Shown one piece after another: positions 8,768 through 59,533 of a stretch of 64,000 bases of DNA. Origin of the DNA: a virus; IMG/VR virus record IMGVR_UViG_3300022700_000048, positions 5,647-69,646 of that record. One strand, given 5' to 3'. Numbering within the stretch: position 1 is the stretch's first letter; each line of letters opens with the position of its first letter. The position numbers were made by a program, and so were the translations under genes. The notes under the pieces were generated by a model, which was not told where the DNA came from, made no database searches, and saw only the letters and a program-made list of their open reading frames with translations.

Positions 8768-9190
8768 ATGAATATATATAAAATTACAAACATTAGTGAT
8801 AAATTAGGGAAAAGAGATAATAATTATAATTCAACATTAAAAATTTCATATATAAATGAAATGGTGAAAAAAAATATTGATTTAAAACCTAATAATACAA
8901 TATATTTTAAAGCAAATTCATTACCACTTTCAGTACAAAAATTTAAGATAAAAAAATTGGTTAGTGTTAATGAAATTAGTGAAAAAGAATTTAATAATAT
9001 TAAACAAAATAAAAAATCAAAACAAAAATCAACAACAACAAGTACAACAAAAAAACCAAAAAAATCAACAAAAAAATCATCGTATAAAAAATCAACATCA
9101 AGTAACAAGAAATCAACAACCAAAAAATCAACAACTACTACAACAACAAGTAAAATAGATGATTATGATGAAAACATTTTGAATAAATAA
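8768..9190 (+). CDS. Hypothetical protein with Lys/Ser/Thr-rich low-complexity tail
   Basis: KKSTTTSTTKKPKKSTKKSS...STTTTTTS. Confidence 0.65.
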   Translation: MNIYKITNISDKLGKRDNNYNSTLKISYINEMVKKNIDLKPNNTIYFKANSLPLSVQKFKIKKLVSVNEISEKEFNNIKQNKKSKQKSTTTSTTKKPKKSTKKSSYKKSTSSNKKSTTKKSTTTTTTSKIDDYDENILNK

Positions 9191-9316: not shown

Positions 9317-10702
9317 ATGAATGATAAGATTAAAATTTTATTTTATAATGTTGATAGTGCTGGTGTAAATTATTTTCGTACACAAACACCAGCAATGGAA
9401 TTAGAAAGAAATCATTCTGATGAATTTCATGTTGAAATTAATCCACAAATTGATTTTAATGATCCTAATGTTTTAGATTATTTAAAATCGTTTCATATAA
9501 TACATTATCATAGACAATTTTTACCTAATAATAATAAAATGTTAGAACTTTCAAAAGAATTGAAAAAAGCTGGGACTACACTAATTGTTGATGTTGATGA
9601 TTATTGGTATTTACATCCTAAACATCCATTTTATTCTTTAAGTAAAGAAAAACAAATGCACATACCAATAATAGAAAATTTAAAAATTGCTGATTATGTA
9701 ACAACTACAACTAGTATATTTGCTGATGAGATAAAAAATGTAACAAAAAAAGATAATGTTGAAGTATTTTATAATTCAATTGATCCAACATGGATGAAAC
9801 AATTTAAAAATAATTGGAAACCTGATCCAGATGGACGTGTTAGAATAACGTATATGGCTGGCTCATCACACATGGTTGATGTTGAACAATTACGTGGTGT
9901 ATTCAATGTTTTAAGAAATGACCCTAAATTAAAAGATAAATTTAAAGTAATTATTGCAGGTTGGGATACTGAAGGTAGTACAACTGAAGTTACATTTAAT
10001 CAGGAATTCGGTGCAGAACTTCAAGAAAGAGGTTTATGGGATCAAAAAATGGTGAAGGCAATTAATAATACTCGTGGTAATGTTGATCAACTTCCAAATA
10101 TACCACAAGATTTGAGAGAAAAATATAGAGGTAAAGTATTTAATGAAAATAAAAGAGATATAAAATCTGAAGAATCTGTTTATTATTTATATGAAAAAAT
10201 ATTAACTGATAATCATAAATTAATTGAAAATGATGATTATTATGAATGGTTAATGAATTTTGAAAGAGATGTACAGTATAATGGTAATGAGGGTAATTTT
10301 AAACGGGTTTGGACACAAAAAGCTAATACATATGCTAATACTCTTAATGAGACTGATATTGTTATTGCACCACTTGCTGATAATAATTTTAATAAAATGA
10401 AATCAAATTTAAAACAAGTTGAATGTTGGTCAAGAAAATTACCAATTGTATGTTCGGATATCCCACCATATAATGTGGATGGAAAACATATGGAAAATTG
10501 TGTTTTAATACCAAATAAAAAAAATGCACACAAGTATTGGTCAAAATATTTAAAAAATTTAATATTAGACGGCGATTTAAGAAAAAAATTGGGTGAGCAA
10601 TTATATAAAGATTTTAGTGAGAAGTATCATTTAGCAAATGTTACAAAAAAACGTGCTAATTTTTATAAAAAAATTGTAAAAAAATCATTAGAAGTAAAAT
10701 AA
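9317..10702 (+). CDS. Glycosyltransferase (GT-B, GT4-like)
   Basis: GVNYFR..P, IVDVDDYW, ADYVTTTT, DIVIAPLADNNFNKMKSNLKQVE, PIVCSDIPPY. Confidence 0.85.
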   Translation: MNDKIKILFYNVDSAGVNYFRTQTPAMELERNHSDEFHVEINPQIDFNDPNVLDYLKSFHIIHYHRQFLPNNNKMLELSKELKKAGTTLIVDVDDYWYLHPKHPFYSLSKEKQMHIPIIENLKIADYVTTTTSIFADEIKNVTKKDNVEVFYNSIDPTWMKQFKNNWKPDPDGRVRITYMAGSSHMVDVEQLRGVFNVLRNDPKLKDKFKVIIAGWDTEGSTTEVTFNQEFGAELQERGLWDQKMVKAINNTRGNVDQLPNIPQDLREKYRGKVFNENKRDIKSEESVYYLYEKILTDNHKLIENDDYYEWLMNFERDVQYNGNEGNFKRVWTQKANTYANTLNETDIVIAPLADNNFNKMKSNLKQVECWSRKLPIVCSDIPPYNVDGKHMENCVLIPNKKNAHKYWSKYLKNLILDGDLRKKLGEQLYKDFSEKYHLANVTKKRANFYKKIVKKSLEVK

Positions 10703-13368: not shown

Positions 13369-15222
13369 ATGGCAACAACAAATCCAGTTAAATACGGTAG
13401 TAGAACTTTTAGTGAAATTAAAGATGATTTAATAGCATTAATAAGACAACAATATCCTGATGTTTTGGGTGATTTTACAGATTCAAGTGTTGGATCAATG
13501 TTAATTGATCTTAATGCTGGTGTAGCAAATAATTTATCGGTTAATACCGATAGAGCATTTCAGGAAACTCAATTAGAATATGCACAACAAAGAAATTCTA
13601 TTTTAAACATTGCAAAAAACATGGGATTCAACATACCAGCAAGAAGACCATCAGTAACAGTTGTTGATTTTACTGTAACTGTTCCTGTAAATGGTGATAG
13701 ACCTGATGCATCCTATTATCCAACTCTTCTACCCGGTGCGCAAGTAATTGGCGGTGGTAAAATATTTGAAACACAAGATATTATAGATTGGAATTCACGA
13801 ATTAGTAATTTAGGTGACCCTAATCGCTCAATATTACCAAATTTAGATTCAAATGGTATTATACAAAGTTATAATGTTACTAAAAGAGAAGTTGTTGTAA
13901 ATGGTTCAACAAGTATATTTAAAAGAGCAATTACAGCAAGAGATGTGACACCATTTTTTTCAATAACATTACCAGACCCAGATGTAATAGAAATTGAAAG
14001 TGTTATATTATTAGAAGGCACTAATTATAGTTCAAATCCAAGTGTATCTGAGTTTTATAATACTGAAAATAGATATTATGAAGTTGATTATTTGGCACAA
14101 CAAAAAATATTTGTTGAAAACCCTAATAGTTCATTTAATACAAATGAAAATGAAGAAAATAATATTAAAGCAGCAAAATGGATTGATGTTACACAAAAAT
14201 TTATTAAAGAATATACACCTAATGGATTTTGTAGATTAACATTTGGTTCTGGTGATCCAATATCTGAACCATTTGAACAAGGTTTTTTAAAAGAAGGTGT
14301 AACAAATAGACAATTTTTAGATAATTTTTTAAAAAATACTTCATTAGGTAAAATGTTAAAAGCAAATAGTACCTTATTTGTTAGATATAGAACTGGTGGG
14401 GGTAGTAATAGTAATTTAGGTGCAAACACACTAACAGAAATTGGTAATATTCAATTAAATGTTGAGGGTTCAAGACAAGATTTTAATCAAGAAGTTCAAC
14501 GTAGTTTAACAGTGAATAATCCAATACCAGCTATAGGTGGAAATGATGGGTTAAGTACTGAACAAATTAGACAATTAATTAAATATAATTATTCATCTCA
14601 AAATAGAGATGTTACAATAACCGATTATTTATTTCAGGTATATAAAATGCCGGGTAGATTTGGTTCACCATTTAAAGCAAATGCATATAAAGAAAACAAT
14701 AAAATTGTTATTCCAATTTTAAGTATTGGTTCAGATGGTAAATTATCAAATCAAAGTAATAATTTATTAAAGGAAAATTTAACAGAATATTTAAGTGGAT
14801 ATAGAATGATTAATGATTTTATTGAAGTAAAAGATGGTAAAATTATTAATCTTGCTTTTGATATTGATTTATATGTTGAAAATATTTCAGATAATACAAT
14901 TGCTAATAATATTATTGATACTGTAAGAGAATTTTTTAATATTAATAATTATGAAATGAATACTGATATTCATATAACTAAATTAGAAAATCAGTTATCA
15001 CAAGTAAATGGTGTTATTAATGTTATTAACATTAAGGCATATAATAAGGTTGGCGGACAATATTCAAATAATGTTATATCTCAAGAAATATTAAATGTTA
15101 GTACTGGTGAAATTAATTTAATTAATAATACTGTATATTCAACAACAGATTCTATGTTTGAAATAAAATATCCTGAAAAAGACATTAATGTCTTTTTAAG
15201 AAAAAGAGTTGGTAGTGTGTAA
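13369..15222 (+). CDS. Baseplate wedge subunit, T4 gp6 / baseplate-J-like
   Basis: Y.SRTFSEIK..L, DFTDSSVGSMLIDL, A..MG, GG.DGLS.EQIR, QNRDVTITDY; follows gp25-like gene. Confidence 0.9.
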   Translation: MATTNPVKYGSRTFSEIKDDLIALIRQQYPDVLGDFTDSSVGSMLIDLNAGVANNLSVNTDRAFQETQLEYAQQRNSILNIAKNMGFNIPARRPSVTVVDFTVTVPVNGDRPDASYYPTLLPGAQVIGGGKIFETQDIIDWNSRISNLGDPNRSILPNLDSNGIIQSYNVTKREVVVNGSTSIFKRAITARDVTPFFSITLPDPDVIEIESVILLEGTNYSSNPSVSEFYNTENRYYEVDYLAQQKIFVENPNSSFNTNENEENNIKAAKWIDVTQKFIKEYTPNGFCRLTFGSGDPISEPFEQGFLKEGVTNRQFLDNFLKNTSLGKMLKANSTLFVRYRTGGGSNSNLGANTLTEIGNIQLNVEGSRQDFNQEVQRSLTVNNPIPAIGGNDGLSTEQIRQLIKYNYSSQNRDVTITDYLFQVYKMPGRFGSPFKANAYKENNKIVIPILSIGSDGKLSNQSNNLLKENLTEYLSGYRMINDFIEVKDGKIINLAFDIDLYVENISDNTIANNIIDTVREFFNINNYEMNTDIHITKLENQLSQVNGVINVINIKAYNKVGGQYSNNVISQEILNVSTGEINLINNTVYSTTDSMFEIKYPEKDINVFLRKRVGSV

Positions 15223-15413
15223 TGGAAGTTATAAAAAAGACAATAAAACAAGCAGTAACAACAGGTACTACAAAAAATAGTACTGGTAATACTTTTATTA
15301 TTATCCCTGATTTAAATGCAAACTATCATATGAAGGTATTATTAACTGCAAAAAAAATTGATTTAGGGTTTTTTGATGCATATGATGATAACATGAATTT
15401 TAATAATGAATAA
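15222..15413 (+). CDS. Small probable virion protein
   Basis: 63-aa ORF coupled to gp6-like gene; TGTT/TGNT motifs. Confidence 0.55.
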   Translation: MEVIKKTIKQAVTTGTTKNSTGNTFIIIPDLNANYHMKVLLTAKKIDLGFFDAYDDNMNFNNE

Positions 15414-15421
15414 TTTAAATT

Positions 15422-15877
15422 ATGGTAATAACAGGTGAATCAAAAAGTAGATTATCAGAATTAAAAAAACATGCAGTATCTAATAATTTTTTTAATAGAT
15501 ATAAATTATCAAATGGTAGTAGTAATGATGGTGTAAATAAAAATAAATCAAATCTTTCATCATCACCCCAAAAAATTGTTTATTATTTAGGTGGTATAAC
15601 ATATACAGATTTATTATATGATGATGGTAGTCTTGTAACTAAATTTGAGTTTATGGGGCAAGAATATAATTCACCTGATTTTATTAATAAACCTATAATA
15701 AAAGACCCAAATAAGGGTAATTTAATATCAAAACCAAAAATTAATGATGATGTATTTATAATTAGACAAGAATTATCAGCATTTGATAAAAATTATAAAT
15801 TAAAAGATATAAATAGTTTAATTGAATTAACCACATATGCAGGTGGGAAATTCTTTAACATAGTAAAAAATACGTAA
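15422..15877 (+). CDS. Probable virion (baseplate) protein
   Basis: 151-aa ORF in baseplate operon. Confidence 0.6.
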   Translation: MVITGESKSRLSELKKHAVSNNFFNRYKLSNGSSNDGVNKNKSNLSSSPQKIVYYLGGITYTDLLYDDGSLVTKFEFMGQEYNSPDFINKPIIKDPNKGNLISKPKINDDVFIIRQELSAFDKNYKLKDINSLIELTTYAGGKFFNIVKNT

Positions 15878-15879
15878 AA

Positions 15880-16782
15880 ATGGCAGTTGGCACATATGGT
15901 ACAGTAAAATCTTCAGACGTTGCACTTACAGATATTGATATGTTTTATACATATTCACCAGATAGAGAAACTATAAGTGATGAAGTATTTCGATTAGATG
16001 CAACACAATTATTATCATATAGTACGTTACCTGAAGATGACCAAATTGAAGGTAATGAAAATATATTAGAGGGTTTATATAATCTAACATTACCTGCAAA
16101 TATATTTAATCAAATTGGGATATATACAATTTATTTAAGACCCAAAGTTGAAGTAACAACAATAATAGATTGTAGTGTATTATCATCATTACCAACAGTT
16201 AAAGGTATTGTTTTAGAAGCTAATTCATTACCCGAAAAATTAAGAGCAAATAATGCTATGCAAGGTTATAAAATTGAATATATTGATGATAATGGTACTA
16301 AAATAAGAAATGTAACTAGATATGTAGTAACATCAAATAAAGTAGTTCCTGTTGCTCAAAATGTTGGTACAACATCACAAAGAGCAATTAGATATCGTTT
16401 TGATGATTCTGGAACATTGATATTTCTTCAACTTACACCAAGTAGTTCGTCAGATTTAAAACCTAATGTGAAACCATTTATTGGTAATGCTGGTCAAACA
16501 ATTTTAATATCCAACACTTATTTTAATCCAATTATGATTGAAGTTGATTTAGTTGAAAATACTATAGAATCGTTAACTAATTATATTGCTGGTGAACAAA
16601 TTAAAGATGTAGATAATGGTATATTAACTTATTATGATAAAGATAGAAATATTATTAAACAATTTGATTTATATGAAGTTAAAGATGACGTAACGAATGT
16701 ATCATTATATGATGTTAAAGAAGAAAGAGATAATATTGATGAATCTCAAAATTTTGATAATATAACAGAAGATATACAATAA
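15880..16782 (+). CDS. Probable virion structural protein
   Basis: 300-aa beta-rich ORF in baseplate operon. Confidence 0.65.
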   Translation: MAVGTYGTVKSSDVALTDIDMFYTYSPDRETISDEVFRLDATQLLSYSTLPEDDQIEGNENILEGLYNLTLPANIFNQIGIYTIYLRPKVEVTTIIDCSVLSSLPTVKGIVLEANSLPEKLRANNAMQGYKIEYIDDNGTKIRNVTRYVVTSNKVVPVAQNVGTTSQRAIRYRFDDSGTLIFLQLTPSSSSDLKPNVKPFIGNAGQTILISNTYFNPIMIEVDLVENTIESLTNYIAGEQIKDVDNGILTYYDKDRNIIKQFDLYEVKDDVTNVSLYDVKEERDNIDESQNFDNITEDIQ

Positions 16783-16808
16783 ATAAAAAATTTATAATTT
16801 TTTATAAA

Positions 16809-16835
16809 AAAATCCCGATAAATTATCGGGATTTT
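16809..16835 (+). terminator. Terminator hairpin
   Basis: AAAATCCCGATA-AAT-TATCGGGATTTT inverted repeat. Confidence 0.8.
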
Positions 16836-16844
16836 GTGTTTATA

Positions 16845-16854
16845 TGTATTTATA
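16845..16854 (+). promoter_or_regulatory. Putative late promoter TGTATTTATA
   Basis: Motif upstream of GTG 16871. Confidence 0.7.
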
Positions 16855-16870
16855 TTAAAATAAAAAGATT

Positions 16871-19800
16871 GTGGCAAAAGTTAAAGTAATAAACAATAAA
16901 CTTGATCAAAATTTAAATGGTGCTAATTTTGATAATACGGTATCTCAAACATTATTTAAATTTGGTAATTTTAAAGTAACATCTAATTTTGATGGTAGAA
17001 AATTAATTAATTATAAAAATGAATTAAGCACATTTGTAAGAGCAATTAATTTAGAAAATTTACCATTAACAGAAACAGAATCTAAACAAACAGTAAAAAA
17101 TACCAATAATGTTGTTTTAAATTTAGATAGATCAAATTTGAATACTTTCACTAAATTTGGATCAGCATATGAATTTATTAGAGTATCAATTGAAAACATT
17201 ATTGTAAATTATCCCGGAAGTTTATATGTTAATTCACAAATTGAAAGAGGTGGGAAACACACTTTTTATGATTTTACATATGATCCCATAAAAAATATTT
17301 CAAAATTTAAAATACCTTCAAATTCTACTGTTAATAAATTTGGGTTGGTTTTTAATCGTGGAAATGATAGTGAACCAAATAATAATAAATTAAAAAATTT
17401 AAATAAATCATTTTATGATTATGTTATTTGGTCAACAAGATATTCTAGTGATAATAGTCACACTATTATTGGGTTTACTGGTGATACTGAATCACATGAA
17501 TATCTTAGTGTAGAGTGTATTGGTAATCCATTTCCATTTTTAAGTGGTGGTAGTAATACTGCTAAATTTAGTTTTCATATAAAACCTAATACAAGAATTT
17601 TTGATGATTTTAGAATATCATTAAATGATTATGAAAGATATATTGTATCTACTAGATCAAACACTGATGCATTTCAATTTATAATGAAAGAACCTAAATT
17701 ATTGGATGATGGTACTATCAATTATACTGATAGAATTATTAAATGGAGAACAATTGACGGATATAATATTGAAATTGATACACCAAGTTATGGAAATTTT
17801 TTAGAAATTGTATTAAGTGTTGCTGATAAATACGATCAAATAAAGAGTGATTTAATTGCTAGATTTTTAACACCAACATCATTACAAACATATGATTTAA
17901 CTGATAATAAGAAAACTAGTAAATTATTAAGAATTTATGGTGCTGAGTTTGATCAAATAAAACAATTCATTGATTCATTAGTTTATATTAATCGTGTAAC
18001 ATATGATAAAAAAAGAAATATACCTGATCAAATTGTTAGTAATTTAGCAAGAACATTTGGATGGGATTATTTTCAATTAGTGAAAGAAGAAGAATTAATT
18101 GAAAGATTATTTGATTTTCAAGAAGCTGAGAGAGATTTAAATAAAGACTTAATACCTGCAGAGGTTGATATTGAATTATGGAGAAGAATATTAATTAACA
18201 CAAATTATTTTTGGAAATCAAAAGGAACTCGTGATGCAATAAAGTCAATATTTTTAATGATTGGTATTCCTGAACCATTTATTAATATTACAGAACATGT
18301 CTATACTGTCGATGGTAGAATTGATCCACGTGAAGTTCCATTATCATTAAATGATTTACCCTCAATATCGTTACCATATAATAATAATGGTTATCCAATA
18401 GCACCTAAAGAAACATCAGATTTTTATTTTCAAATTTCTGGAAATAGTGATGGTGGTCAAACATATATGAATAACTTTCGTAATGTTGGTTTTGATTTGA
18501 ATTATCAGGTTGATAATAAGAAATCGTGGATTCAAACAGAAGCAACATATAGAAAACACTATTCATCACCAGATTATTATCAATTAGATAGTCAATTAGT
18601 TCTTAATACAAAAGAAGTTGATATTGCTCTTGATATAACAAGAGGTGTTGAATATAGTGTTTATAAGTACATTAAAGAACAGGATTTTCCTGCAAATTCA
18701 ACAGCATATACAATGCCATATTCATATGTTAACTTATCTTTAGGTGTTCCACAAGGTGGTACACAAACATTTACATTACCATCTAATATGATGCCATCTG
18801 AAGGTGATATTGAAGTTCGATATAATGGTATTCTTTTAAATTCAGATAAAGTTTATTCAGGTGGAACAACAACAATTGGCAATAGTGAAAATGATTATAT
18901 TATTAGTGGTGATACACTAATATTAAATGAACCAGCAAATAAATCTAATAATAATAGAGATGTTGTTCAAGTTACATATATTTATAGTGGTCAAACATCT
19001 AATCCAATAACAGGATTAACAGCTAATTATATTGTTTCAAGAGTTGTCCCCCAATACCCATATACAAAAATTACATTACCTGAAATTCCTTCGGGTGATA
19101 TACAATTAACAATTAATGGTATTGCTGCAACAAAAGGTACACCACAATTTCAAGCTGATTATTCAATAAATCCAAATAATCCACAAGAAATAATAATACA
19201 AAATTCAACATTAATATCATATTTTTCACAAAACCCATATACACAAATAGCAATGGTTCATGTAAACCAACCAGATGCATTAGAAGCTAAAAATGAAATA
19301 ATTAGAGTTGATAGTCTTCAAAGTGGTAAAATTTATTATAAAGCATCAGCAAATAAAACTGTTCTACGTTTAAATTATAAAATTATTAATGTAAAAAATG
19401 TAAAAATATTAGTTAATGGAATTGCACTTGAACCTAATAATGATTATAAAATCAATCCAAATAATGATTATGAATTATATCTTCCTGCGGGTATTAATTT
19501 AGGTGATATAATTAGCGCATATTATCTTATTGGGGGTGATATAGTACAAACACCAGTAATTGATGATGAATTTGGTCTTGGTGATATTTCAGAAATGTCA
19601 TTTTTAGAATTTTTAGATTTAATGAAAAAAAGAACAATTAATGCAACAAATAGAAAAATAATAACAGATTTTAAGGGTGGGTGGTATCCAACATTATTAA
19701 ATATTTATACAACATATTTACATAGAGCAAATTTAAATAATGAAGATCAATTAAAATCAAATGGGTATACATTTGAAAATTTATATCCCTTTTTAAACAA

Positions 19801-20590
19801 ATATAATGCTTTCTTTCAAAAATTTGTTGATCAATTATTGTCATCAACAATAATACAGGATAAAGGTGGGTTATTAATTAGAAATACAATATTCACTAAA
19901 CAAAAATATGCATATAAAAGAGGTGTTAGCTTTGATTTTGGTGGCGGTATTTCAAAATCTTTAAATTATTTTGGTAGTGATGATGCAACATATTTAAAAA
20001 GACCACTACAACAAGTAGCTGAATGGACTGATGATGTAATTTGTACACCTGATTTATGCGATGATTTTGAGGTTAAAAATGTCCAAGTCATTTATCCAAC
20101 TGTTACTACTACAACAACAGCAGCACCATATGATTCAATATTAAATATTGTTGAACAATCATCTTCATATACTCCAATAACAAATGGTTATGAATCACAA
20201 GTAGTATATGGATTAGAATTTTCACCATCAATATTACCAGATTATACTGTTAATCTTAATTTAGATTTTGATTATATTTTAAATAATTCCAGTGGTGCAA
20301 CAGATCAATTGACAATTCTTGAAGTTCAAGTTAAAATAAATAATAATATTGTTTATAACATATCAAAATATAACAATAATATAGAAAATCAAATATCAAC
20401 TGGTACAACATTAATATCTATAGGTGCTGGAGATAATGTTACAATAATATTATATAATAGTGCACAAGAAAGTTCAAGTAATGAAATAATATCAGAAACT
20501 ATTATGACACCAAATGTGGAAGATGTGTTACCAAATGGAGAAATAGGTGTTATCATACCATCAATAATAAGAAATAAAGTAAATACATAA
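16871..20590 (+). CDS. Large baseplate wedge/tail protein (gp7 / P2-I-like core with appended beta domains)
   Basis: LARTFGW...ELWRRILINTNYFWKSKGTRDAIKSIF core; repeated V.YNG/INGI..DY beta modules; poly-Thr linker near the C-terminus. Confidence 0.75.
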   Translation: MAKVKVINNKLDQNLNGANFDNTVSQTLFKFGNFKVTSNFDGRKLINYKNELSTFVRAINLENLPLTETESKQTVKNTNNVVLNLDRSNLNTFTKFGSAYEFIRVSIENIIVNYPGSLYVNSQIERGGKHTFYDFTYDPIKNISKFKIPSNSTVNKFGLVFNRGNDSEPNNNKLKNLNKSFYDYVIWSTRYSSDNSHTIIGFTGDTESHEYLSVECIGNPFPFLSGGSNTAKFSFHIKPNTRIFDDFRISLNDYERYIVSTRSNTDAFQFIMKEPKLLDDGTINYTDRIIKWRTIDGYNIEIDTPSYGNFLEIVLSVADKYDQIKSDLIARFLTPTSLQTYDLTDNKKTSKLLRIYGAEFDQIKQFIDSLVYINRVTYDKKRNIPDQIVSNLARTFGWDYFQLVKEEELIERLFDFQEAERDLNKDLIPAEVDIELWRRILINTNYFWKSKGTRDAIKSIFLMIGIPEPFINITEHVYTVDGRIDPREVPLSLNDLPSISLPYNNNGYPIAPKETSDFYFQISGNSDGGQTYMNNFRNVGFDLNYQVDNKKSWIQTEATYRKHYSSPDYYQLDSQLVLNTKEVDIALDITRGVEYSVYKYIKEQDFPANSTAYTMPYSYVNLSLGVPQGGTQTFTLPSNMMPSEGDIEVRYNGILLNSDKVYSGGTTTIGNSENDYIISGDTLILNEPANKSNNNRDVVQVTYIYSGQTSNPITGLTANYIVSRVVPQYPYTKITLPEIPSGDIQLTINGIAATKGTPQFQADYSINPNNPQEIIIQNSTLISYFSQNPYTQIAMVHVNQPDALEAKNEIIRVDSLQSGKIYYKASANKTVLRLNYKIINVKNVKILVNGIALEPNNDYKINPNNDYELYLPAGINLGDIISAYYLIGGDIVQTPVIDDEFGLGDISEMSFLEFLDLMKKRTINATNRKIITDFKGGWYPTLLNIYTTYLHRANLNNEDQLKSNGYTFENLYPFLNKYNAFFQKFVDQLLSSTIIQDKGGLLIRNTIFTKQKYAYKRGVSFDFGGGISKSLNYFGSDDATYLKRPLQQVAEWTDDVICTPDLCDDFEVKNVQVIYPTVTTTTTAAPYDSILNIVEQSSSYTPITNGYESQVVYGLEFSPSILPDYTVNLNLDFDYILNNSSGATDQLTILEVQVKINNNIVYNISKYNNNIENQISTGTTLISIGAGDNVTIILYNSAQESSSNEIISETIMTPNVEDVLPNGEIGVIIPSIIRNKVNT

Positions 20591-20592
20591 TA

Positions 20593-21507
20593 ATGAAACT
20601 ATTAATAGCATTACCGGAGCATAATTATTTTTTATGGCAAATGTTGGTTCAAATTAACAATTTGAAAAAATTTGGATATGATAAAGATACTATTTATGTT
20701 ATTGGTAGACAAGATATTAAGCGTAATGAAAATTTAGATAATATAATAAAACACACAAAAACAAATTGTAGTTTTTATACATATAATGATGATAGAAATG
20801 ATTATACATATTCATCTTCTTTAAGACCACATATTCTTCATAAATTATTTTTAGATTACCCCGAATTTAAAAATGAATCGTTTTTTTATATAGACCCTGA
20901 TGTTATTTTTACAAAAAAAATAAGATTTAATGATATTGAAAAAAATGATATATGGTATTTAAGTGATACACGTTCATATATTGGTTCATCATATATAAAA
21001 AGTAAAAGTAATGAATTATTTAATAAAATGTGTGATGTTGTTGGTATTGATCCTCAAATTGTTGAAGATAATGATAAAAATGCTGGTGGTGCACAATATT
21101 TTATGAAAAATTTAACACCATCTTTTTGGAAAAAAGTTGAAAACGATAGTATAAATTTATATAAATTAATGATTAATACACAAAATAAATACACTCCCGA
21201 AGCACCGATTCAGGCTTGGACTGCTGATATGTGGGCGGTATTATGGAATGCTTGGTTAATGAAATATGAAACAAAAATTGTAAAAAGACTAAATTTTTCA
21301 TGGGCAACCGATCCCATTTCAAAATGGGATAAGTGTAGCATTTATCATAATGCTGGTGCTGTTGGTGATAATAATTTTTTTAAAAAAACTGATTATCAAA
21401 AATCACCTTTTAATGAAAAATTAAAATGTTCATCAAAATATTGCTCATTTAATTATGTTAAAGAAATTAAAGAAACTAAAAAAAATTATAAAAATATTTT
21501 ATTCTAA
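20593..21507 (+). CDS. GT-A fold glycosyltransferase resembling peptidyl-Ser/Hyp O-glycosyltransferases
   Basis: Y....RP, FFYIDPDVIF (DxD), GGAQY, QAWTADMWAVLWN, IYHNAG; sits between tail genes. Confidence 0.7.
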   Translation: MKLLIALPEHNYFLWQMLVQINNLKKFGYDKDTIYVIGRQDIKRNENLDNIIKHTKTNCSFYTYNDDRNDYTYSSSLRPHILHKLFLDYPEFKNESFFYIDPDVIFTKKIRFNDIEKNDIWYLSDTRSYIGSSYIKSKSNELFNKMCDVVGIDPQIVEDNDKNAGGAQYFMKNLTPSFWKKVENDSINLYKLMINTQNKYTPEAPIQAWTADMWAVLWNAWLMKYETKIVKRLNFSWATDPISKWDKCSIYHNAGAVGDNNFFKKTDYQKSPFNEKLKCSSKYCSFNYVKEIKETKKNYKNILF

Positions 21508-23387
21508 TGTTTAATAATACAAGAAAATATCGTCTAAATGTTGAGGAAATTAAATCACATGGTATTAGTGCTAATACAAAAAATTATGAATATAATTTAT
21601 TAAATAGTTTTAATGTTAATAATACCACATATCCACAATTATCTACAGAAGAATTAGCAAATTTAAACATACCAAATTATTTAAGTCGTGTTTGCGATTA
21701 TTTAACGTATATAAATATTGAAAGGGAAGGATTAAGAGAAAAATTAATTAATAATGCATTAACACATACATCTGATTGTGAAATAAAATGTAAACTAAAT
21801 TCAGATTTTTTAGTTTATCGGTTTTTAACTGGTGTTAGAGTTGTTAACATTGGAGAATTTAATGGTACTGTTGAATACAAAGCATATCCAATTGAAGATG
21901 ATCCAAGTGGTTATACATGGCAAACAAGTGGAACATTTTTAAATTTAAATTTAAATAAAATTTATGTATTTGAAGTTAGAGATATTGTAGATAATGAAGA
22001 ATATTGTAAAGTTCAAAGAACAGTATCATTACCAACTTTAGTCCAAAGTACCACATTTACACCAGAAGAAAAATTAGTGTATCTTAATGAAGTTGCGTGT
22101 GGATCAAATAATCTTTATTATTATAATAATGGTACAATTAATATTGATCCGTCATTAACTAATGATGAGATTGTTTGTATTAATTATAAAGTATTTGCAG
22201 ATGCATATGGTGATGCTGAATCATGTGTACAATTATTTTGTAAACCTAATAATTGTAATACATTTTTAAATTATTCATGTCATACATCAGATGATGGTTT
22301 ACAATCAGGTAATTTTACATTACGAGACGGTGATCAGATGTGTTATAATTTAACTAATATAGTACCAACAGCAGGTTCTTGTGCATGTACATGTTTTGAA
22401 ATATATAATGTTGATGGTGGCGGTACAACAGCACCATCAATTGATGAAAGTCGTTCATGTGTTACTAGATGTGCTTCAATACCTAGAGAAGAAATTATTT
22501 TTAATTTAGATGAATCAATAATATACTCAAATGAGTGTTGTGAAAAGAAAATTGGTAATTTTAATTTTTCACCGTCAATTCCAGAAAATGAATGTTTAAG
22601 TCTTGAATTAAATGATTTAGCAAGAATTAGTCCATATCAGAATACTGCATCAGCATCAGTTATTGTTAAATGTAAATCACAAAGTGGGGTAAATTACGAT
22701 ACATTGTTTACAAATACATCTGGATTGCCCTCACCTACATCAAGAAGTATAGAAATTAAACATGGTGATTCATTATGTTATGAATTAATGGTTGAAGCAG
22801 TTAATGGTGTTACTGGAACATCATGTATAAATGTTTTCAATATACCAACACAATCAAATGGTATAAACACAAATATTGGACCATCTGGTAGTACATGTGT
22901 TGAAAAATATGTTGAACCATTAGCAGCAACTCTTTCTGTTTGTCAACAAAATGAAACATATGATGAAATAATAAACACTAAATTTGGTAATGGGTATATA
23001 AATATATCACCATCAATAACATTAAATCAATGCGTTAATATTAATTTTAGTGGAGAATTTTTAGTTTTTAGTGCAGATCAAAATATTAATAATTCTGGAA
23101 CAATTAATATCTTTTGTAAAAAAGCAATTGATAATAATTACTCTATTAAATGTACAATGGAAACAAATGGTTCTACTACTACATGTACTGGTAATATGTT
23201 TATTTGTTCTGGTGATAGTTTGTGTTATGCAATTTCAGCAAGAGCAGCTACATGTAGTACATCAGTATCAACTAATTTAAAATTAGATAGTGCTTCTGGA
23301 TTTAATGGAATTGATCCGTCAGTATCATCAACAAAAAATAATCATTGTATATCAGTATCATATAATGAAAATAATAACATTTTATAA
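21507..23387 (+). CDS. Cys-rich tail-associated protein with three internal repeats
   Basis: Three units with I.PS....C / CK / GD.LCY motifs. Confidence 0.7.
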   Translation: MFNNTRKYRLNVEEIKSHGISANTKNYEYNLLNSFNVNNTTYPQLSTEELANLNIPNYLSRVCDYLTYINIEREGLREKLINNALTHTSDCEIKCKLNSDFLVYRFLTGVRVVNIGEFNGTVEYKAYPIEDDPSGYTWQTSGTFLNLNLNKIYVFEVRDIVDNEEYCKVQRTVSLPTLVQSTTFTPEEKLVYLNEVACGSNNLYYYNNGTINIDPSLTNDEIVCINYKVFADAYGDAESCVQLFCKPNNCNTFLNYSCHTSDDGLQSGNFTLRDGDQMCYNLTNIVPTAGSCACTCFEIYNVDGGGTTAPSIDESRSCVTRCASIPREEIIFNLDESIIYSNECCEKKIGNFNFSPSIPENECLSLELNDLARISPYQNTASASVIVKCKSQSGVNYDTLFTNTSGLPSPTSRSIEIKHGDSLCYELMVEAVNGVTGTSCINVFNIPTQSNGINTNIGPSGSTCVEKYVEPLAATLSVCQQNETYDEIINTKFGNGYINISPSITLNQCVNINFSGEFLVFSADQNINNSGTINIFCKKAIDNNYSIKCTMETNGSTTTCTGNMFICSGDSLCYAISARAATCSTSVSTNLKLDSASGFNGIDPSVSSTKNNHCISVSYNENNNIL

Positions 23388-23400
23388 AATAATAAATTAT

Positions 23401-23410
23401 TGTATTTATA
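23401..23410 (+). promoter_or_regulatory. Putative late promoter TGTATTTATA
   Basis: Motif upstream of 23426. Confidence 0.7.
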
Positions 23411-23425
23411 ATAAAAGAAAAATAA

Positions 23426-25816
23426 ATGGCATTTATTGAAAAAAAAGACCCAACAGTTTTAAATATAAAATTAACATCTAAAGGTAGAGAACAATTATCT
23501 AAAGGTCAGTTAAATTTTAAATATTACGCTATTGGTGATAGTGAAATTGATTATGATTTTAATAGAAATGCGGAATTTAATCCATTTTATTCAAATATTT
23601 TAAGACCAAATGATAAAAATCCTAAACAACTTTCATTTATACCACGAAATTTATCTGGTGAGCCATATAATGAAATATCATCAGTACCATCAACACCGAG
23701 TACAATTGTAAATCAAGTACAACCAATAGGTTTTTTTAATGATAATGCTAATGAATTTTTAGTTGATAGTGATCATGTGAAACAACCTGATATTGCAATT
23801 GAAATTTCGGGAATAACAGGTGGAACAATATTAAAACTAAAAAAAGCACCAACATATCAAGCAAATCATAATGAACCCCAAGAAGGTGATTTATTGTTAG
23901 TAAAATGGACAAATCCTTTAAGCATTGATACAACTGGATATACAATTAATAAAAATTATCCAACACCTATATTATGGTATAAAATTCAGAATATTAGTGG
24001 TGGTACATTAGCAAATAACAATCTTATTGTTGAAGTTGATAGAGAATTACCAGATTTTAGTGAAATTACTGGTGGGAGTAATTCTATATTAGCTGGTGCA
24101 ATGGTGTATTATAATTTTATGAATTATACTGGTGAAACTAATTATTCTACTGATAATGTAGATGAAGCATTATTAACATTTTTACAAAATTGTGAATGTC
24201 CAACCACTGTATTCCCATTTTGGAATATGTCAATTCTTTATACTGAAGATATTGCGGGTGTTGATCCATTGAATGATGTAAATTATATTAATTATAATAC
24301 AAAAAATTTAGCTGGTTTTGTATTATATATACAAAATCAACAAAAGTATAATGATGATTACAATTATAAAAGAAAATTAGGTATTATACATTATACTAAT
24401 AATTCTGTTTCAAATACATATGGTGAGAGTTTTTATGGTGATCCATTAAATTCCCGTGAAGCAACAGAAGTACCAACACTAGACCTTCCAACAATTATGT
24501 GGCATAAATCAAGTGGTACAACATTAGGGTTAAAATTAAAAGCATCTGGTTCATTAAAATATTTAACAGGTGCAACCAGATTTTTAAATACAAGATATTA
24601 TGATTTAGCTGATCCAGTTGGAAATGTTGTAGGTAAGGTTTTTTATGATTTAAAAATATTCTTAATAGAAGATCAAGAATTATTATTTGCAATGTCATAT
24701 AAATCAAATAGATCATGGACTTTACCTGAACATGAAGTTGATATTAATGCTAATGTTACATTTGGGTGTCCAGCATGCTTCTTACAATATGATGTTACAA
24801 CAATACCACCAACATATATTAATGGTAATGATGGTCAAATTATCATATCGGATATTCTTAATTCATCACTTGATAGTGTACCAACAAGTCCAGTAATATT
24901 AGAAATATTAACTGGACCTACTGGTAATACTGGACAAACAAAAATATATTTTAGTGAAATTACAGGTGATACAATAATTACAAACAATAATACCATTAAT
25001 AATTATAATTTAAGTGCTGGTACATATACTGTTAAATTAATTGATACTGGTTTTGCTGATTGTATTGTTTCTACGGGAGTAACAATATCAGCTATAACAT
25101 CACAATTAACAATATATGCTGAACAAACAACATATTCAGCACTTAATTCATATTTTAATATTATGCCTGTAGATAATAACCCAACACATATTAGGTTTAA
25201 TAATGCATTAGTTGGTAATCCATTTGGAACAGCATATTTTACAATTACAGAAACTGGTGCAACTAATACATATTTAAATAGTTTATCTAATAGTACTGTT
25301 GGTAATGATGCGCTTGGTAATCCAAGTAATCCGGGTAAATGGGTTGAAATTCCAAGTGGCAGTACATTAAATGTTACTAATTTAACATTTACACAACCAT
25401 ATCAAATATTTGTTAGAGACGCTACTGGTGATACGTTTAATGATATAATGCAACAAGAAGCAATTGATTCACAAGTTTGGTCATATTATGTTGCAGCAGG
25501 AAACCCTTTATCAGAATCAAATGATATTAATGTTACAAAGGGTAGTGATTCAAATGGTGAATATGTAGTAATTTCAAATTATATAGATGCATCTATTGAT
25601 GGTTCAATTAACCCAATTATTGGTGATATTGAAATTAGTATACATAAAACTACAGAATTACCAAAACAATGGAATAGTACATCAAATGATGGTAGTTCAG
25701 TAAAACTATATATTAATGATTTATCAAGTGATAGTTATAATGTAACAATTAGAGAAAAATATGGATATATTACAATGTATAAAATAACAGCAAATAATAC
25801 ATTTACAATAATATAA
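23426..25816 (+). CDS. Tail/baseplate structural protein
   Basis: N-terminal KLTSKGREQLSKG..NFKYYAIGDSEIDY (tail-collar/baseplate-like LT..GR...A.GD); SprB-like NLSAGTYTVKLID. Confidence 0.7.
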   Translation: MAFIEKKDPTVLNIKLTSKGREQLSKGQLNFKYYAIGDSEIDYDFNRNAEFNPFYSNILRPNDKNPKQLSFIPRNLSGEPYNEISSVPSTPSTIVNQVQPIGFFNDNANEFLVDSDHVKQPDIAIEISGITGGTILKLKKAPTYQANHNEPQEGDLLLVKWTNPLSIDTTGYTINKNYPTPILWYKIQNISGGTLANNNLIVEVDRELPDFSEITGGSNSILAGAMVYYNFMNYTGETNYSTDNVDEALLTFLQNCECPTTVFPFWNMSILYTEDIAGVDPLNDVNYINYNTKNLAGFVLYIQNQQKYNDDYNYKRKLGIIHYTNNSVSNTYGESFYGDPLNSREATEVPTLDLPTIMWHKSSGTTLGLKLKASGSLKYLTGATRFLNTRYYDLADPVGNVVGKVFYDLKIFLIEDQELLFAMSYKSNRSWTLPEHEVDINANVTFGCPACFLQYDVTTIPPTYINGNDGQIIISDILNSSLDSVPTSPVILEILTGPTGNTGQTKIYFSEITGDTIITNNNTINNYNLSAGTYTVKLIDTGFADCIVSTGVTISAITSQLTIYAEQTTYSALNSYFNIMPVDNNPTHIRFNNALVGNPFGTAYFTITETGATNTYLNSLSNSTVGNDALGNPSNPGKWVEIPSGSTLNVTNLTFTQPYQIFVRDATGDTFNDIMQQEAIDSQVWSYYVAAGNPLSESNDINVTKGSDSNGEYVVISNYIDASIDGSINPIIGDIEISIHKTTELPKQWNSTSNDGSSVKLYINDLSSDSYNVTIREKYGYITMYKITANNTFTII

Positions 25817-25823
25817 AATATAT

Positions 25824-27086
25824 ATGTCAGATTTTAGATTTAAAATAAGCGGTGATTCTGGTCCATTTTTGGCAGAATTATATGATGCAATAACATGTAG
25901 TAAAATTACATCAAAAATAATTGAATATTCTGGTTTATCAACACCCGATAAAGAAAATTACACGTGTGTAATTTTTAATGGGTTATATGAAGAAACTAAT
26001 TATTATGCAAAAGTAATTGATAATATTGGTAATACTGCTCTTTCAATAACAGGACAAACCCCAACAAATCCAATTGTTATTCCAACTGAAATTAATATTA
26101 ATTTACTTGGAACATATTATGAACCACCACAAACACTTGAAACAATATGTACATTACGATCACCAAAATATATAGAGATCACACCAGCACCAATAGGTAA
26201 TCAATGTGTTACTGTTAATTTAAGTGCTGTTACTTGTTCTTCAAGTAGTTATAGTGACGCATATATTGAACTATATAAGAAATGTACTGAATCTGGTTCA
26301 TACACATCAATTTGTACAATAACAAATAATACAACGAATGTTGATCCAATACAAATTGGTGAGGGGGATGGTGTGTGTTATGACTTATATACTAAATTGG
26401 AAGATAATATTACTTCAGCCGATAAATATGCATGTGCTGAATTACAATTATTTAATACAACAGCATCAGGATATGGTTCATGTTATGAAATAAATACGAC
26501 AAATGATTGTTTAGACATATCACAATTTGAAGCAGGTACAACAACTACTACAACTACAACATTATCACCAACAGTTGTATATATTGATGATATTAATACT
26601 AATACAGTAACATTTGGTCAATTAAAATGTGGAAATATAAATACATATCCAGCTATTAATTCATCACAATCATTTAGAGTATGCTTTGAAATTATTAATA
26701 ATTATGTTATTAATGAAACATTACCTGATGATATAAATCAATGTGGACGTATATTAGAATCAAATAGTTTAATTGATGAATTGGGAACAAATGAAAAAGA
26801 TGTTGGTACTTGTACGTGTAGGATATCAACATATATTGATATTGATTCAAATAATATTATTAATAGTAATGTTAATGTTAATTCATTAGTTGGTGGTAGT
26901 AATAATAATTATGGTTGTAATTATTGTGAATATCAATGTATAAGAATTTGTCAAATAACTAATATGAATAATGGTAATTTTATTTATGGAACTAGTGGTT
27001 ATCCTTCAAGTATTTGTACATATTGGGACGGTAATTTACAGGGTTCATTAAATGGTGGTGGTGGATTATTAGAAAATAATATATAA
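25824..27086 (+). CDS. Cys-rich tail-associated protein with poly-Thr linker
   Basis: Shares I.PA....C...GDG.CY module with 21507 protein; GTTTTTTTTLSP. Confidence 0.7.
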   Translation: MSDFRFKISGDSGPFLAELYDAITCSKITSKIIEYSGLSTPDKENYTCVIFNGLYEETNYYAKVIDNIGNTALSITGQTPTNPIVIPTEININLLGTYYEPPQTLETICTLRSPKYIEITPAPIGNQCVTVNLSAVTCSSSSYSDAYIELYKKCTESGSYTSICTITNNTTNVDPIQIGEGDGVCYDLYTKLEDNITSADKYACAELQLFNTTASGYGSCYEINTTNDCLDISQFEAGTTTTTTTTLSPTVVYIDDINTNTVTFGQLKCGNINTYPAINSSQSFRVCFEIINNYVINETLPDDINQCGRILESNSLIDELGTNEKDVGTCTCRISTYIDIDSNNIINSNVNVNSLVGGSNNNYGCNYCEYQCIRICQITNMNNGNFIYGTSGYPSSICTYWDGNLQGSLNGGGGLLENNI

Positions 27087-27098
27087 AAATAAATATAT

Positions 27099-27818
27099 AT
27101 GTCAAATTTAATTAAATTTAATATTATTAATGGTGTTCCACCGTTTGAAGCAGAATTAATTGGTAGTTCATTACCAAAACAAATATTTAATAGTATAGGA
27201 CAACATTATTTTTATAATGTTTTAAATGGTTACTATACATTAAAAATTGTTGATGCAAATGGATGTATATATGAAAAGGAAATTATTGTTGATCCATCAA
27301 TAACAACAACTACAACAACATTAATACCTGAAGAATCAATTGTTGTTGGTCATGCACAAGACCCTTTACTTATTTTTAATCCTATTGCAACAAATAAAAA
27401 TGATGATTTCGTTGGTTATCCAGATTCTGATGTAGTAACATTATATTTATGGTTTAAAACATATAATGGAAAACCATTAACAAATAATGTAGCAATAAGT
27501 TATAATATTGGAACAACTGGTGGGACAACAGATTCAACATTTAAATTTAATTCGGTTAGTGATGAAATACATACTGAAGTTCAAGAAGATGTTACTGGAC
27601 CTAATGATTCTATTATTGGTAATATAATATTAAAAAAGGGATTTATTGAATCATATTTTGAATATATATATTATAGGGGGTCAACAAATAAAAGGTATCA
27701 AATTGAATTAAAATCAGGATTAGATAATTTTTATCCTAATAGTGAAACTAGTGATGATATTGGTACTGATTACGGTATTTCAATTATTGATACTAATGAA
27801 ATTATATTTAATTATTAA
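27099..27818 (+). CDS. Tail-associated protein with SprB-like N-terminal repeat and poly-Thr linker
   Basis: NGVPPF...NGYYTLKIVDANGC then PSITTTTTTLIP. Confidence 0.65.
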   Translation: MSNLIKFNIINGVPPFEAELIGSSLPKQIFNSIGQHYFYNVLNGYYTLKIVDANGCIYEKEIIVDPSITTTTTTLIPEESIVVGHAQDPLLIFNPIATNKNDDFVGYPDSDVVTLYLWFKTYNGKPLTNNVAISYNIGTTGGTTDSTFKFNSVSDEIHTEVQEDVTGPNDSIIGNIILKKGFIESYFEYIYYRGSTNKRYQIELKSGLDNFYPNSETSDDIGTDYGISIIDTNEIIFNY

Positions 27819-27825
27819 TTTAAAC

Positions 27826-27835
27826 AGTATTTATT
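27826..27835 (+). promoter_or_regulatory. Putative late promoter AGTATTTATT
   Basis: Motif only 3 nt before ATG 27839. Confidence 0.5.
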
Positions 27836-27838
27836 GAT

Positions 27839-28606
27839 ATGGCAAAAGGATATACAGCATTTATGACATATATGTTAATACCTGAAACTGGTACAACAAG
27901 TGGTATTACACAGGGATATGGTTACAGTCAAGCAATTCATTGTAATTATGAAAAGAATGTTTATTTTGAAGATTTAACAAACAAAGAATTTAATATATAT
28001 TTTGAAAATCCAGATGAATTTAAATTTTTATCAACAAGTGGTGGTACCGGATTTACAGCACATAAGTTAGTTGTGTTGGCACAATTAATAGATAATGAAC
28101 CATATAATTCATTAAATGATGTAAAGCCATTTCCAAATGAATGGAGATGGTTTGATGTTACTGAACAAATAATAGATTATAAATCAGGTCAAACATTAAC
28201 TGCATCAGGTGTTTGTAGTACTGTCTTTAGAGTACCAATACATAAATATTATATTGCTGATAAGTATGATCTTAGTTATTTAAATTATCCTCAAGTTTCA
28301 ACAGGTAGTACAGCATCAACTGTTAATTATTTAAATTTTGGTGATGAAACATATTTTATGGGAAATGTAACAACAAGTATAGAAGCAATTGCATATACAA
28401 TGGATTTAGGTATTAATTTACCACTTAATCAATTTAATTCTACTGGTAACCCTACATGGAATTCAAATTTAGATAAACAAGTTTTTATTTCAGAAATTGG
28501 GTTATATGATGAAAATAAAAATCTTGTTGGAATTGCAAAATTAAATAATCCCATACCTAAAGATGACACTATATCAAGAACAATTGTTTTTGCTATGGAT
28601 TTTTAA
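27839..28606 (+). CDS. Tail/baseplate structural protein
   Basis: C-terminal VFISEIGLYDENKNLVGIAKLNNPIPK...DF, typical of tail-collar/baseplate proteins. Confidence 0.7.
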   Translation: MAKGYTAFMTYMLIPETGTTSGITQGYGYSQAIHCNYEKNVYFEDLTNKEFNIYFENPDEFKFLSTSGGTGFTAHKLVVLAQLIDNEPYNSLNDVKPFPNEWRWFDVTEQIIDYKSGQTLTASGVCSTVFRVPIHKYYIADKYDLSYLNYPQVSTGSTASTVNYLNFGDETYFMGNVTTSIEAIAYTMDLGINLPLNQFNSTGNPTWNSNLDKQVFISEIGLYDENKNLVGIAKLNNPIPKDDTISRTIVFAMDF

Positions 28607-58111: not shown

Positions 58112-58672
58112 TTATTTTTGTTCTTGATAATTTGTTACATTATCAATATTCATAATTAATTCTGTAAATTTATTTAAATCAATCTTATCTGGATACCATT
58201 TAGCAGCATTAATAAATATGAATCGTTTATATTTCCACTCATTTTGATATTTTTTATACATACTACTTTTTTGAGTTTCACTATATGATGCATTTGCACC
58301 AATATCACATAATTTTAAAATTAATGCACGATAATCATTAAGTGTTTTAGGTGCTGTTGCTAGAAATCTAAGCATACGATTTTTTTCTGGAATATCAGTT
58401 ACAGCTATTGTAATATCAGCAACTTCTTTACCTGCAATTTTTTTAATATCATTATATGTTTGTTGAGCATCTTCTATGAGATCATGGGTGTAGGCTGCCA
58501 TACTTACATATTTAAAATCATCATCAGATTTAAGAATATGTGGATGCATTAAAACCCATTTATGAACCATTTCTAAATGTTTCAAATATGGCTCATTATC
58601 ACTACCATAAGTACAACCAGTAGTATCATGTGCAGCAATAGCATAATTTATTATTTTAATATTTTTATTCAT
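58112..58672 (-). CDS. HD-domain hydrolase, SpoT/Mesh1 (p)ppGpp-hydrolase-like
   Basis: AH....., PYLKHL, AAYTHDLIED, VA.I..AVTD, LKLCD...N. Confidence 0.85.
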   Translation of the reverse strand: MNKNIKIINYAIAAHDTTGCTYGSDNEPYLKHLEMVHKWVLMHPHILKSDDDFKYVSMAAYTHDLIEDAQQTYNDIKKIAGKEVADITIAVTDIPEKNRMLRFLATAPKTLNDYRALILKLCDIGANASYSETQKSSMYKKYQNEWKYKRFIFINAAKWYPDKIDLNKFTELIMNIDNVTNYQEQK

Positions 58673-59155: not shown

Positions 59156-59533
59156 ATGAAAATAAAACAAAGAATGAAAAGATTTCTCGAATTTTTAATA
59201 GAGAATCGACAAACAGGTCATACATCATTATTGAATAAAATTGGTAAAAAACACGATATTTATATTATTGTCCATAATGCAAAAATGGTTAATGAATTTG
59301 ATTCAGAAGTTCAAAGTAAAATAATTCCAATTGATAATATTAGTATTTTACAAGCTGCTCCAAATAAACCAGTATTATTGGATAATAAAATATTATTAGA
59401 TTTGTTAAATGATAGTATTAAAAATATTGAACATAAAGAAGATATAATTTATTATTATAAAGAAAGCATAAATAAAATTAAAGATATTGTTAAAGAAAAT
59501 GATCATATCTTAAGTACAAGAGGAATAAAATAA
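59156..59533 (+). CDS. Hypothetical protein (possible degenerate P-loop RQTGHT)
   Basis: 125-aa ORF. Confidence 0.55.
   Translation: MKIKQRMKRFLEFLIENRQTGHTSLLNKIGKKHDIYIIVHNAKMVNEFDSEVQSKIIPIDNISILQAAPNKPVLLDNKILLDLLNDSIKNIEHKEDIIYYYKESINKIKDIVKENDHILSTRGIK

Follow-up and report, generated by a model that had tools for sequence, protein, structure and literature searches.

Ser/Thr-Gly-x-Thr motifs in the baseplate and tail region

The window analysed here is a 64,000-nucleotide stretch of a virus (IMG/VR record IMGVR_UViG_3300022700_000048, positions 5,647 to 69,646). It makes up most of the 69.6-kb record, for which CheckV gives a completeness of 23%, and is very AT-rich, with a GC content of 22–27%. 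It contains a T4-like baseplate and tail module, in which gp25-like and gp6-like genes are followed by genes for large proteins without family names (Table 1; proteins are referred to by the first position of their open reading frame (ORF)). Several of these large proteins carry many copies of a four-residue motif, Ser/Thr-Gly-x-Thr ([ST]-G-x-T).

The motif was scored over the 69 ORFs of the window as the share of [ST]G dipeptides that continue as xT, with the expectation for each protein taken from 2000 composition shuffles. Fifteen of the 19 [ST]G dipeptides of the 23426 protein continue in this way (shuffle mean 0.88), as do 6 of 8 in the 27839 protein (0.26) and 7 of 11 in the 16871 protein (0.79), with p ≤ 0.0005 for all three. 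Together these proteins hold 28 copies where about two are expected, and xT follows 55–79% of their [ST]G dipeptides, compared with a baseline of about 6%. The hand counts given for the three proteins in a preliminary description of this DNA were all reproduced, and the enrichment it reported survives the shuffled controls. The longest in-phase run in the window, TGPTGNTGQT, comprises three triplets at residues 496–505 of the 23426 protein.

Further copies that had been described nearby are present in the 15222 ORF (TGTT and TGNT) and in the 21507 (2/13, p 0.10), 25824 (1/7) and 27099 (1/3) proteins, though in the last three they are not individually significant. Single copies also occur in the ORFs at 84–1784, 58112–58672 and 59156–59533. 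As had been stated, the SbcCD-like 34969 protein (0/6), the 42095 protein (0/12) and the gp6-like 13369 protein (0/4) have none.

Table 1. Genes of the baseplate and tail region, with positions in the window.
Position	Strand	Length (aa)	Feature	Motif copies	Family match or similarity
9317–10702	+	461	GT-B (Pfam GT1-type) glycosyltransferase within the baseplate gene block; candidate modifying enzyme		phrog_7162
12979			gp25-like gene		phrog_43/261
13369–15222	+		gp6-like baseplate wedge protein; internal negative control for the motif	0	phrog_219 (E 2.9e-19)
15222–15413	+	63	ORF, N-terminal piece of a split gene	TGTT, TGNT	resembles the N-terminus of 215–293-aa orthologues
15422–15877	+	151	C-terminal piece of the same split gene, in another frame	0	
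16871–20590	+	1239	Baseplate protein (gp7-sized)	7	
20593–21507	+	304	Accessory protein of unproven function		phrog_4417
21507–23387	+	626	Variable Cys-rich protein	2	
23426–25816	+	796	Outer baseplate/fibre protein; residues 1–440 conserved, 440–796 a lineage-specific extension	15	
25824–27086	+	420	Variable protein in a hypervariable slot	1	
27099–27818	+	239	Variable protein	1	
27839–28606	+	255	Protein that elsewhere is the C-terminal domain of proteins of about 650–800 aa	6	

Thr, Ser and Gly are abundant in the carrier proteins and more so in their loops, as would be expected if the motif were an artefact of amino-acid composition, either of the whole protein or of the loops. While the shuffles address the first of these, other orderings of the same residues address both. 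Within the window proteins these orderings occur 1–9 times, compared with 28 for the motif; TG.[ST] reaches 18 copies, but overlaps the motif. Among 92 pooled orthologues the other orderings number 91–216, compared with 656. As the other orderings are far rarer than the motif, local composition is removed as a cause. With respect to a signal in the DNA, all 28 sense-strand occurrences of the coding pattern are in frame 0 and none is in frame 1 or 2, while three more are antisense. The codon before Gly tends to end in T, but this is a general habit of the genome, also seen at [ST]G dipeptides outside the motif. Since the pattern is confined to the coding frame and the codon preference is genome-wide, the signal lies at the level of the protein. 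On the basis of the frame and reordering tests both a cause in the DNA and an artefact of composition were rejected, and the probability that we would leave to either is negligible.

In the pooled orthologues TGxT is found at 7.2 times and SGxT at 7.0 times the expected frequency, and [ST]GxS at about twice; the values for AGxT, GGxT and DGxT are 1.0, 1.2 and 0.8. The flanking positions carry only 0.1–0.2 bits, confirming that the flanks are unrelated as previously noted, though positions −1, −3 and −5 are weakly alternating hydrophobic (0.46–0.51, background 0.36). Any residue may stand at x, about one third being hydrophobic. Most sites are single, with a spacing of three being the commonest of the short spacings (32 cases among the 656 motifs). 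Being free of its flanks and present on non-homologous outer virion proteins, the motif behaves, as had been proposed, like a short element reused in different folds rather than a repeated domain.

Distribution among relatives and distant phages

Searches of IMG/VR gave 32 related loci (longest contig 363 kb) and a sister lineage of 80 loci (L058–L137); counts across these relatives share ancestry and are not independent events. Orthologues of the 16871 protein (26 sequences) have 2–22 copies against 0.6–3.9 expected, those of the 23426 protein 1–11 against 0.1–2.6 and, among the window's relatives, those of the 27839 protein 1–7 against 0.1–0.4. Orthologues of the 15422 type that have a middle extension contain 4–13 copies against 0.1–0.8. 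The gp6-like (17 orthologues) and 15880 families have 0–1 copies each. Several sites are conserved in position. Of the 21 orthologues of the 23426 protein, 18 keep site 235 and 14 keep site 170; of the 26 of the 16871 protein, 23 keep site 523 and 22 keep site 706. At the conserved sites the residue x is free and the S/T, G and T are retained; other sites arise in lineage-specific insertions.

In the sister lineage a single fusion protein of about 735 aa combines the 27839 protein with the N-terminal part of 23426; it is uniformly motif-rich, typically with 9–15 copies against about one expected across the 80 loci (at two of which another ORF was picked). The same arrangement, in which the conserved N-terminal 440 aa of 23426 and the 27839 protein form one chain of about 650–800 aa, is found in many other phages; the window's clade has a separate gene for each. 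When 150 representatives of the 27839 family are binned by rank, every bin is enriched 5- to 8-fold, with single members ranging from 15/21 to 0/14. No loci were found in IMG/VR for the motif-free homologues P0227 and P0257.

For whole genomes the expectations were calculated as composition products with Poisson tails. The nearest cultured relatives, Flavobacterium phage immuto and Microcystis phage Mel-JY01, are remote, with about 28% identity on gp6, and their syntenic gp7-sized proteins score 0/15 and 0/16, the lowest p among 31 coding sequences being 0.012. No ORF at p<1e-5 was seen in E. coli phage nieznany, in immuto (0/160), in Mel-JY01 (0/207) or in LR756508, a 484-kb genome with a match to gp6 (0/488). 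The ratios of observed to expected copies over these genomes are 0.97, 1.68, 0.92 and 1.42, respectively. Of the 741 ORFs of the 735-kb megaphage LR756501, in which no similarity to the gp6 of the window could be detected, 11 are at p<1e-5, with scores such as 22/30, 15/21, 12/22 and 7/8. The copies in this genome are isolated and specific in order (22 against 1–3 for other orderings), and six of the seven motif-rich proteins that were tested have no similarity to proteins of the window or of its complete relative G002.

Given that the syntenic proteins of the outgroups lack the motif and that members of the 27839 family range from 15/21 to 0/14, the motif is not required by the fold. Judged by its distribution over these sequences, it is a trait of the phage group.

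Placement of the sites on the carrier proteins

The genome of G002 (362 kb, 100% complete) has 209 copies of the motif in 372 ORFs, against 59 expected. Its highest-scoring ORFs encode tail fibre or spike-like proteins whose C-terminus is an intramolecular chaperone, a head-decoration-like protein, the sheath and the baseplate orthologues. All the [ST]GxT sites of the 933-aa sheath lie in inserted regions (105–310 and 490–552), and none is found in the conserved C-terminal core.

Placement within the window proteins was read from the secondary structure of predicted models. In the AF2 model of the 27839 protein (pLDDT 81.4) each of the six sites falls in a non-regular segment, and for two of the sites this is an insertion of low confidence. 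The model of the 23426 protein has a pLDDT of 39.6, from an alignment of 19 rows, and only residues ~120–225 are usable; here the sites are at the ends of strands or in hairpin loops. Loops had been expected from the preliminary description, and the models agree with this. Alignments give a similar picture: across 19 aligned sequences of the 27839 family (the window and 18 orthologues) 78 copies are in columns adjacent to insertions or deletions and none in solid columns, and the corresponding odds are 2.8 (p 1.6e-20) for the 16871 family and 1.5 for the 23426 family. Taken together the carriers, models and alignments place the motif in the loops and variable insertions of virion proteins that face outwards.

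The fold of the 27839 protein gave nothing at E ≤ 0.001 when compared with the PDB using Foldseek. With VIA-align a weak FN3-like similarity was seen over residues 1–120 (Z ≤ 5.2), and the matches in BFVD were one homologue of the fused form and ConA-like or laminin-G entries with low TM scores.

The carriers are all beta-rich, either fibrous or sandwich-like, and a structural explanation can be envisaged in which the motif is a favoured tight turn or strand cap, with the S/T and the Thr flanking a Gly turn, and is not modified at all. The positions at strand ends and hairpin loops in the usable part of the 23426 model would fit such a turn, as would the weak hydrophobic alternation upstream, the positional conservation of several sites and the lack of any avoidance of the motif in non-virion proteins. 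A turn of this kind should, however, be seen in proteins of the same fold whatever their lineage, an expectation that fails in the syntenic outgroup proteins and within the 27839 family. The x position, with its free choice of residues including many hydrophobic ones, is unlike that of a strict turn. Moreover, lineage-specific insertions have acquired the motif time and again, the distant megaphage carries it on proteins that are not homologous, and generic myovirus proteomes are at baseline (0.92–0.97). We consider an unmodified structural turn rather unlikely, though not lightly to be set aside.

Candidate partner genes

The preliminary description had assigned the modification to the 20593 protein, as the glycosyltransferase that would begin O-glycosylation, with the 9317 protein extending the sugar. 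The position of the 20593 gene, inside the tail module and between motif-rich genes, is suggestive, and residues D101-P102-D103, invariant in 36 homologues, could be a DxD motif. Atlas neighbours provide leads to DUF7164 and to HPAT-type peptide glycosyltransferases, the latter in 10% of the members of one cluster. Against this, the protein has no match to a Pfam glycosyltransferase even at E 10 and belongs to phrog_4417, the function of which is unknown. Searches of the PDB sequences with phmmer and with a profile of 36 rows returned nothing meaningful; the TAL-effector entries matched by the profile are spurious, being sums of sub-threshold repeat matches.

The distribution of the gene is more telling. 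The 20593 profile recovers the window, G006 and G007, serving as a positive control, but finds no match in the other seven of the ten clade records (G001–G005, G008 and G009, including the complete G002) or in any of the nine sister-lineage records, all of which carry the motif. Of the seven motif-rich genomes with a completeness of 90% or more, six lack it (G002 and all five of the sister lineage). The 20593 protein thus cannot be the enzyme behind the motif, and the co-occurrence proposed for the two does not hold. Initiation by 20593 with extension by 9317 is accordingly very improbable, though 20593 could add an extra modification specific to its own lineage; as a glycosyltransferase it found no support in the family and PDB searches. 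Two related loci, L003:11333-13315 and L007:12548-14542, encode a homologue fused in one chain with radical SAM and SPASM domains (Pfam E 1e-9 to 4e-11), and these fusion genes likewise occupy the hypervariable slot of the tail. A radical SAM enzyme, peptide- or sugar-modifying, joined to what may be a GT-A domain would be unusual. No radical SAM partner was found in the 69.6-kb contig.

The identity of the 9317 protein as a GT-B (GT1-type) glycosyltransferase is, by contrast, supported by sequence comparison. It matches the glycosyltransferase family phrog_7162 (E 1.6e-29), its atlas neighbours are all viral GT1 clusters, and the ten best matches that carry a family all share the family or clan, though its score against Pfam Glycos_transf_1 (PF00534), 16.5 bits, is below the cut-off of 26.4. 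Homologues are present in eight of the ten clade records, including that of the window, with 72–76% identity in the seven relatives; the two records without a match are fragments rated 63% and 14% complete. All nine sister records have one, at about 40% identity, and thus the 9317 type is present in 7/7 motif-rich genomes of the clade and sister lineage that are at least 90% complete. Conserved sequence blocks are shared by these enzymes across the lineages. Residues 227–272 (9995–10132) are inserted in the enzyme of the window's clade, adding about 45 aa that those of the sister lineage lack; the insertion weakly matches (E 0.007–0.03) a C-terminal stretch of ribonucleotide reductase large subunits.

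No homologue of 9317 was found in the motif-free immuto, Mel-JY01 or LR756508, and for LR756508 the absence of the motif had been predicted from this before the genome was scanned. The megaphage LR756501, on the other hand, has a full-length homologue at 25% identity. Six loci in IMG/VR contain relatives of the megaphage enzyme; being 70–98% identical they belong to the same lineage and were not used. Among the sugar genes tested only 9317 co-varies with the motif. The role of 9317 suggested in the preliminary description has therefore to be recast: it is a glycosyltransferase as stated, but it is 9317 and not 20593 that accompanies the motif.

Other genes might provide the factor that reads the motif. 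This could be a kinase, an acyl- or methyltransferase, an ATP-grasp ligase or another glycosyltransferase, or a partner that binds to it, for example a decoration protein or an assembly chaperone. G002 possesses a glycan-biosynthesis island (L038:18327 to L039:7259; 118–127 kb of the genome) with genes for an NAD-dependent epimerase/dehydratase, a pfkB kinase, a GNAT protein, a methyltransferase, a DegT-type aminotransferase (E 6e-70) and two GT-A-type enzymes. The clade thus encodes further glycosyltransferases and an amino-sugar pathway, though an island of the G002 type is absent from the window's contig. Three of these candidates were discarded: DegT occurs in the motif-free immuto and is absent from the megaphage LR756501, the GT-A genes are limited to the clade and do not track the motif, and pfkB is missing from four of the five complete sister genomes.

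The presence/absence profile of the 9317-type gene is shared by 24 of the 372 genes of G002, among them several for proteins of unknown function and one for an ATP-grasp R2K-clade ligase (L042:16816-17625), which is 52% identical in the distant LR756501 and absent from four motif-free genomes. Because these genes share its profile the glycosyltransferase is not singled out, and it is a candidate. ATP-grasp ligases act on carboxylates rather than hydroxyls, which would make the ligase ill-suited to this motif. Recognition of the motif by a factor other than 9317 seems to us distinctly unlikely.

A possible sequon for virion glycosylation

The motif is ordered, independent of its flanks, situated in loops, limited to particular clades, carried by non-homologous outer proteins and found together with one family of glycosyltransferases, and for these reasons we interpret it as a recognition tag for a modifying enzyme that acts in trans. 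The tag-like nature of the motif, on the loops of outer virion proteins, was the part of the earlier proposal that stood; the enzyme assigned to it did not, and glycosylation itself stands as a proposal.

The explanation that we tentatively prefer, with slightly less than even confidence, is that [ST]-G-x-T is a sequon for O-glycosylation of the virion by an enzyme of the 9317 type. A short ordered tag with free flanks would be selected on the exposed loops and variable insertions of outer virion proteins in uncultured aquatic jumbo phages, with the tagged proteins being those of the baseplate periphery, the tail fibres, the extra sheath domains and the decoration-like proteins. The tag would be read in the cytoplasm, before or during assembly, by a phage-encoded enzyme, for which the conserved GT-B glycosyltransferase at 9317–10702 is the best candidate. 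We infer that a hydroxyl of the tag, probably that of the strictly conserved Thr at position 4, would be O-glycosylated, presumably leaving the particle with a coat of sugar.

A number of points weigh against this explanation. GT-B enzymes of large phages can also glycosylate DNA (PMC12619734) and as a result 9317 may have another substrate. The sites that are conserved in position would fit a structural role as well, and the model of the 23426 protein is poor. The rest of the G002 proteome is at 1.2–1.5 times expectation, similar to the baseline genomes, so that non-virion proteins do not avoid the motif. Phage nieznany has distant homologues of the glycosyltransferase with the motif at its expected level (22 against 22.8), though the similarity is only short and generic, with 26–34% identity over pieces of about 115 aa. 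Finally, the profile of 9317 is shared by the other G002 genes noted above, and the independent lineages are few, with at most three that are motif-positive and three that are motif-negative and lack the glycosyltransferase. It is a wider and more doubtful proposition that one GT-B family carries out cytoplasmic, sequon-directed O-glycosylation at [ST]-G-x-T, coating the fibres, baseplates and sheaths of several distant lineages of huge aquatic phages, though the sequence comparisons leave some room for it.

Glycosylation of virions by phage-encoded glycosyltransferases has been reported for mycobacteriophages (Freeman et al, 2023, Cell Host Microbe, as cited in PMC12619734), with glycans demonstrated experimentally at the C-termini of capsid and tail-tube subunits (PMC12619734). 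As in those phages, a phage-encoded glycosyltransferase is proposed here to modify the structural proteins of the phage itself and so alter the surface of the particle. In contrast to the sites described in that source, those of the window are internal, along baseplate, fibre and sheath-insertion proteins rather than at the C-termini of capsid and tail-tube subunits, and they are defined by an ordered motif of four residues in AT-rich aquatic jumbo myoviruses known from sequence alone.

Glycosylation of Thr in a related context is seen in Clostridioides difficile, where SgtA modifies the Thr of the Gly-Pro-Thr repeats of the exosporium protein BclA3 (PMC7157674). The repeats are described there as long collagen-like arrays, and SgtA as a GT-A-type enzyme encoded beside its substrate (PMC7157674). 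In both cases the Thr would be in a Gly-x-Thr context, and consecutive triplets produce T-G-x-T, as in the run TGPTGNTGQT of the window. By analogy we count this system as a precedent in favour of glycosylation at the motif. Unlike the BclA3 arrays as described, the sites in the window are mostly single with x free, and the window proteins contain no collagen-like array; the candidate is of the GT-B rather than the GT-A type, and the GT-A genes of G002 do not track the motif.

In a search of the literature neither this motif nor a phage virion sequon was found. To our knowledge glycosylation of virions by phage enzymes has been demonstrated experimentally only in mycobacteriophages, where it takes place without a sequon. 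If the proposal is correct, these phages would provide the first defined sequon for protein glycosylation in tailed phages, and an acceptor tag of four defined residues would allow glycosylated virion surfaces to be predicted from sequence across metagenomes. The enzyme and tag would constitute a simple pair that could be tested in E. coli and perhaps used in protein glycoengineering, and they would be relevant to the ways in which large aquatic phages protect or adjust the machinery with which they recognise their hosts. Even if no sugar is involved, an explanation is needed for an ordered motif that is enriched about 7-fold in the outer proteins of two or more distant phage groups and is lacking in their relatives without the glycosyltransferase.

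Variable genes of the tail region

The region 23426–28606 is a hypervariable slot, in which 23426 has gained an extension of 350 aa and the variable 25824 and 27099 genes separate it from 27839. Among the 32 related loci a homologue of the 21507 protein was found in one and homologues of the 25824 and 27099 proteins in none. The 21507–23387 protein contains three G-D-x-[LM]-C-Y elements about 150 aa apart, suggesting that a single domain is present in triplicate.

The gene at 15222–15877, between gp6 and 15880, is in some relatives a single ORF of 215–293 aa with a motif-rich middle; other relatives are matched only by a piece of about 147 aa. The division of this gene in the window could be a deletion with a frameshift, a real split or a sequencing error. 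Directly upstream of the 9317 glycosyltransferase, an ORF of 140 aa (8768–9190) encodes a protein with 12.9% Thr, 13.6% Ser and almost no Gly, for which no family match was found.

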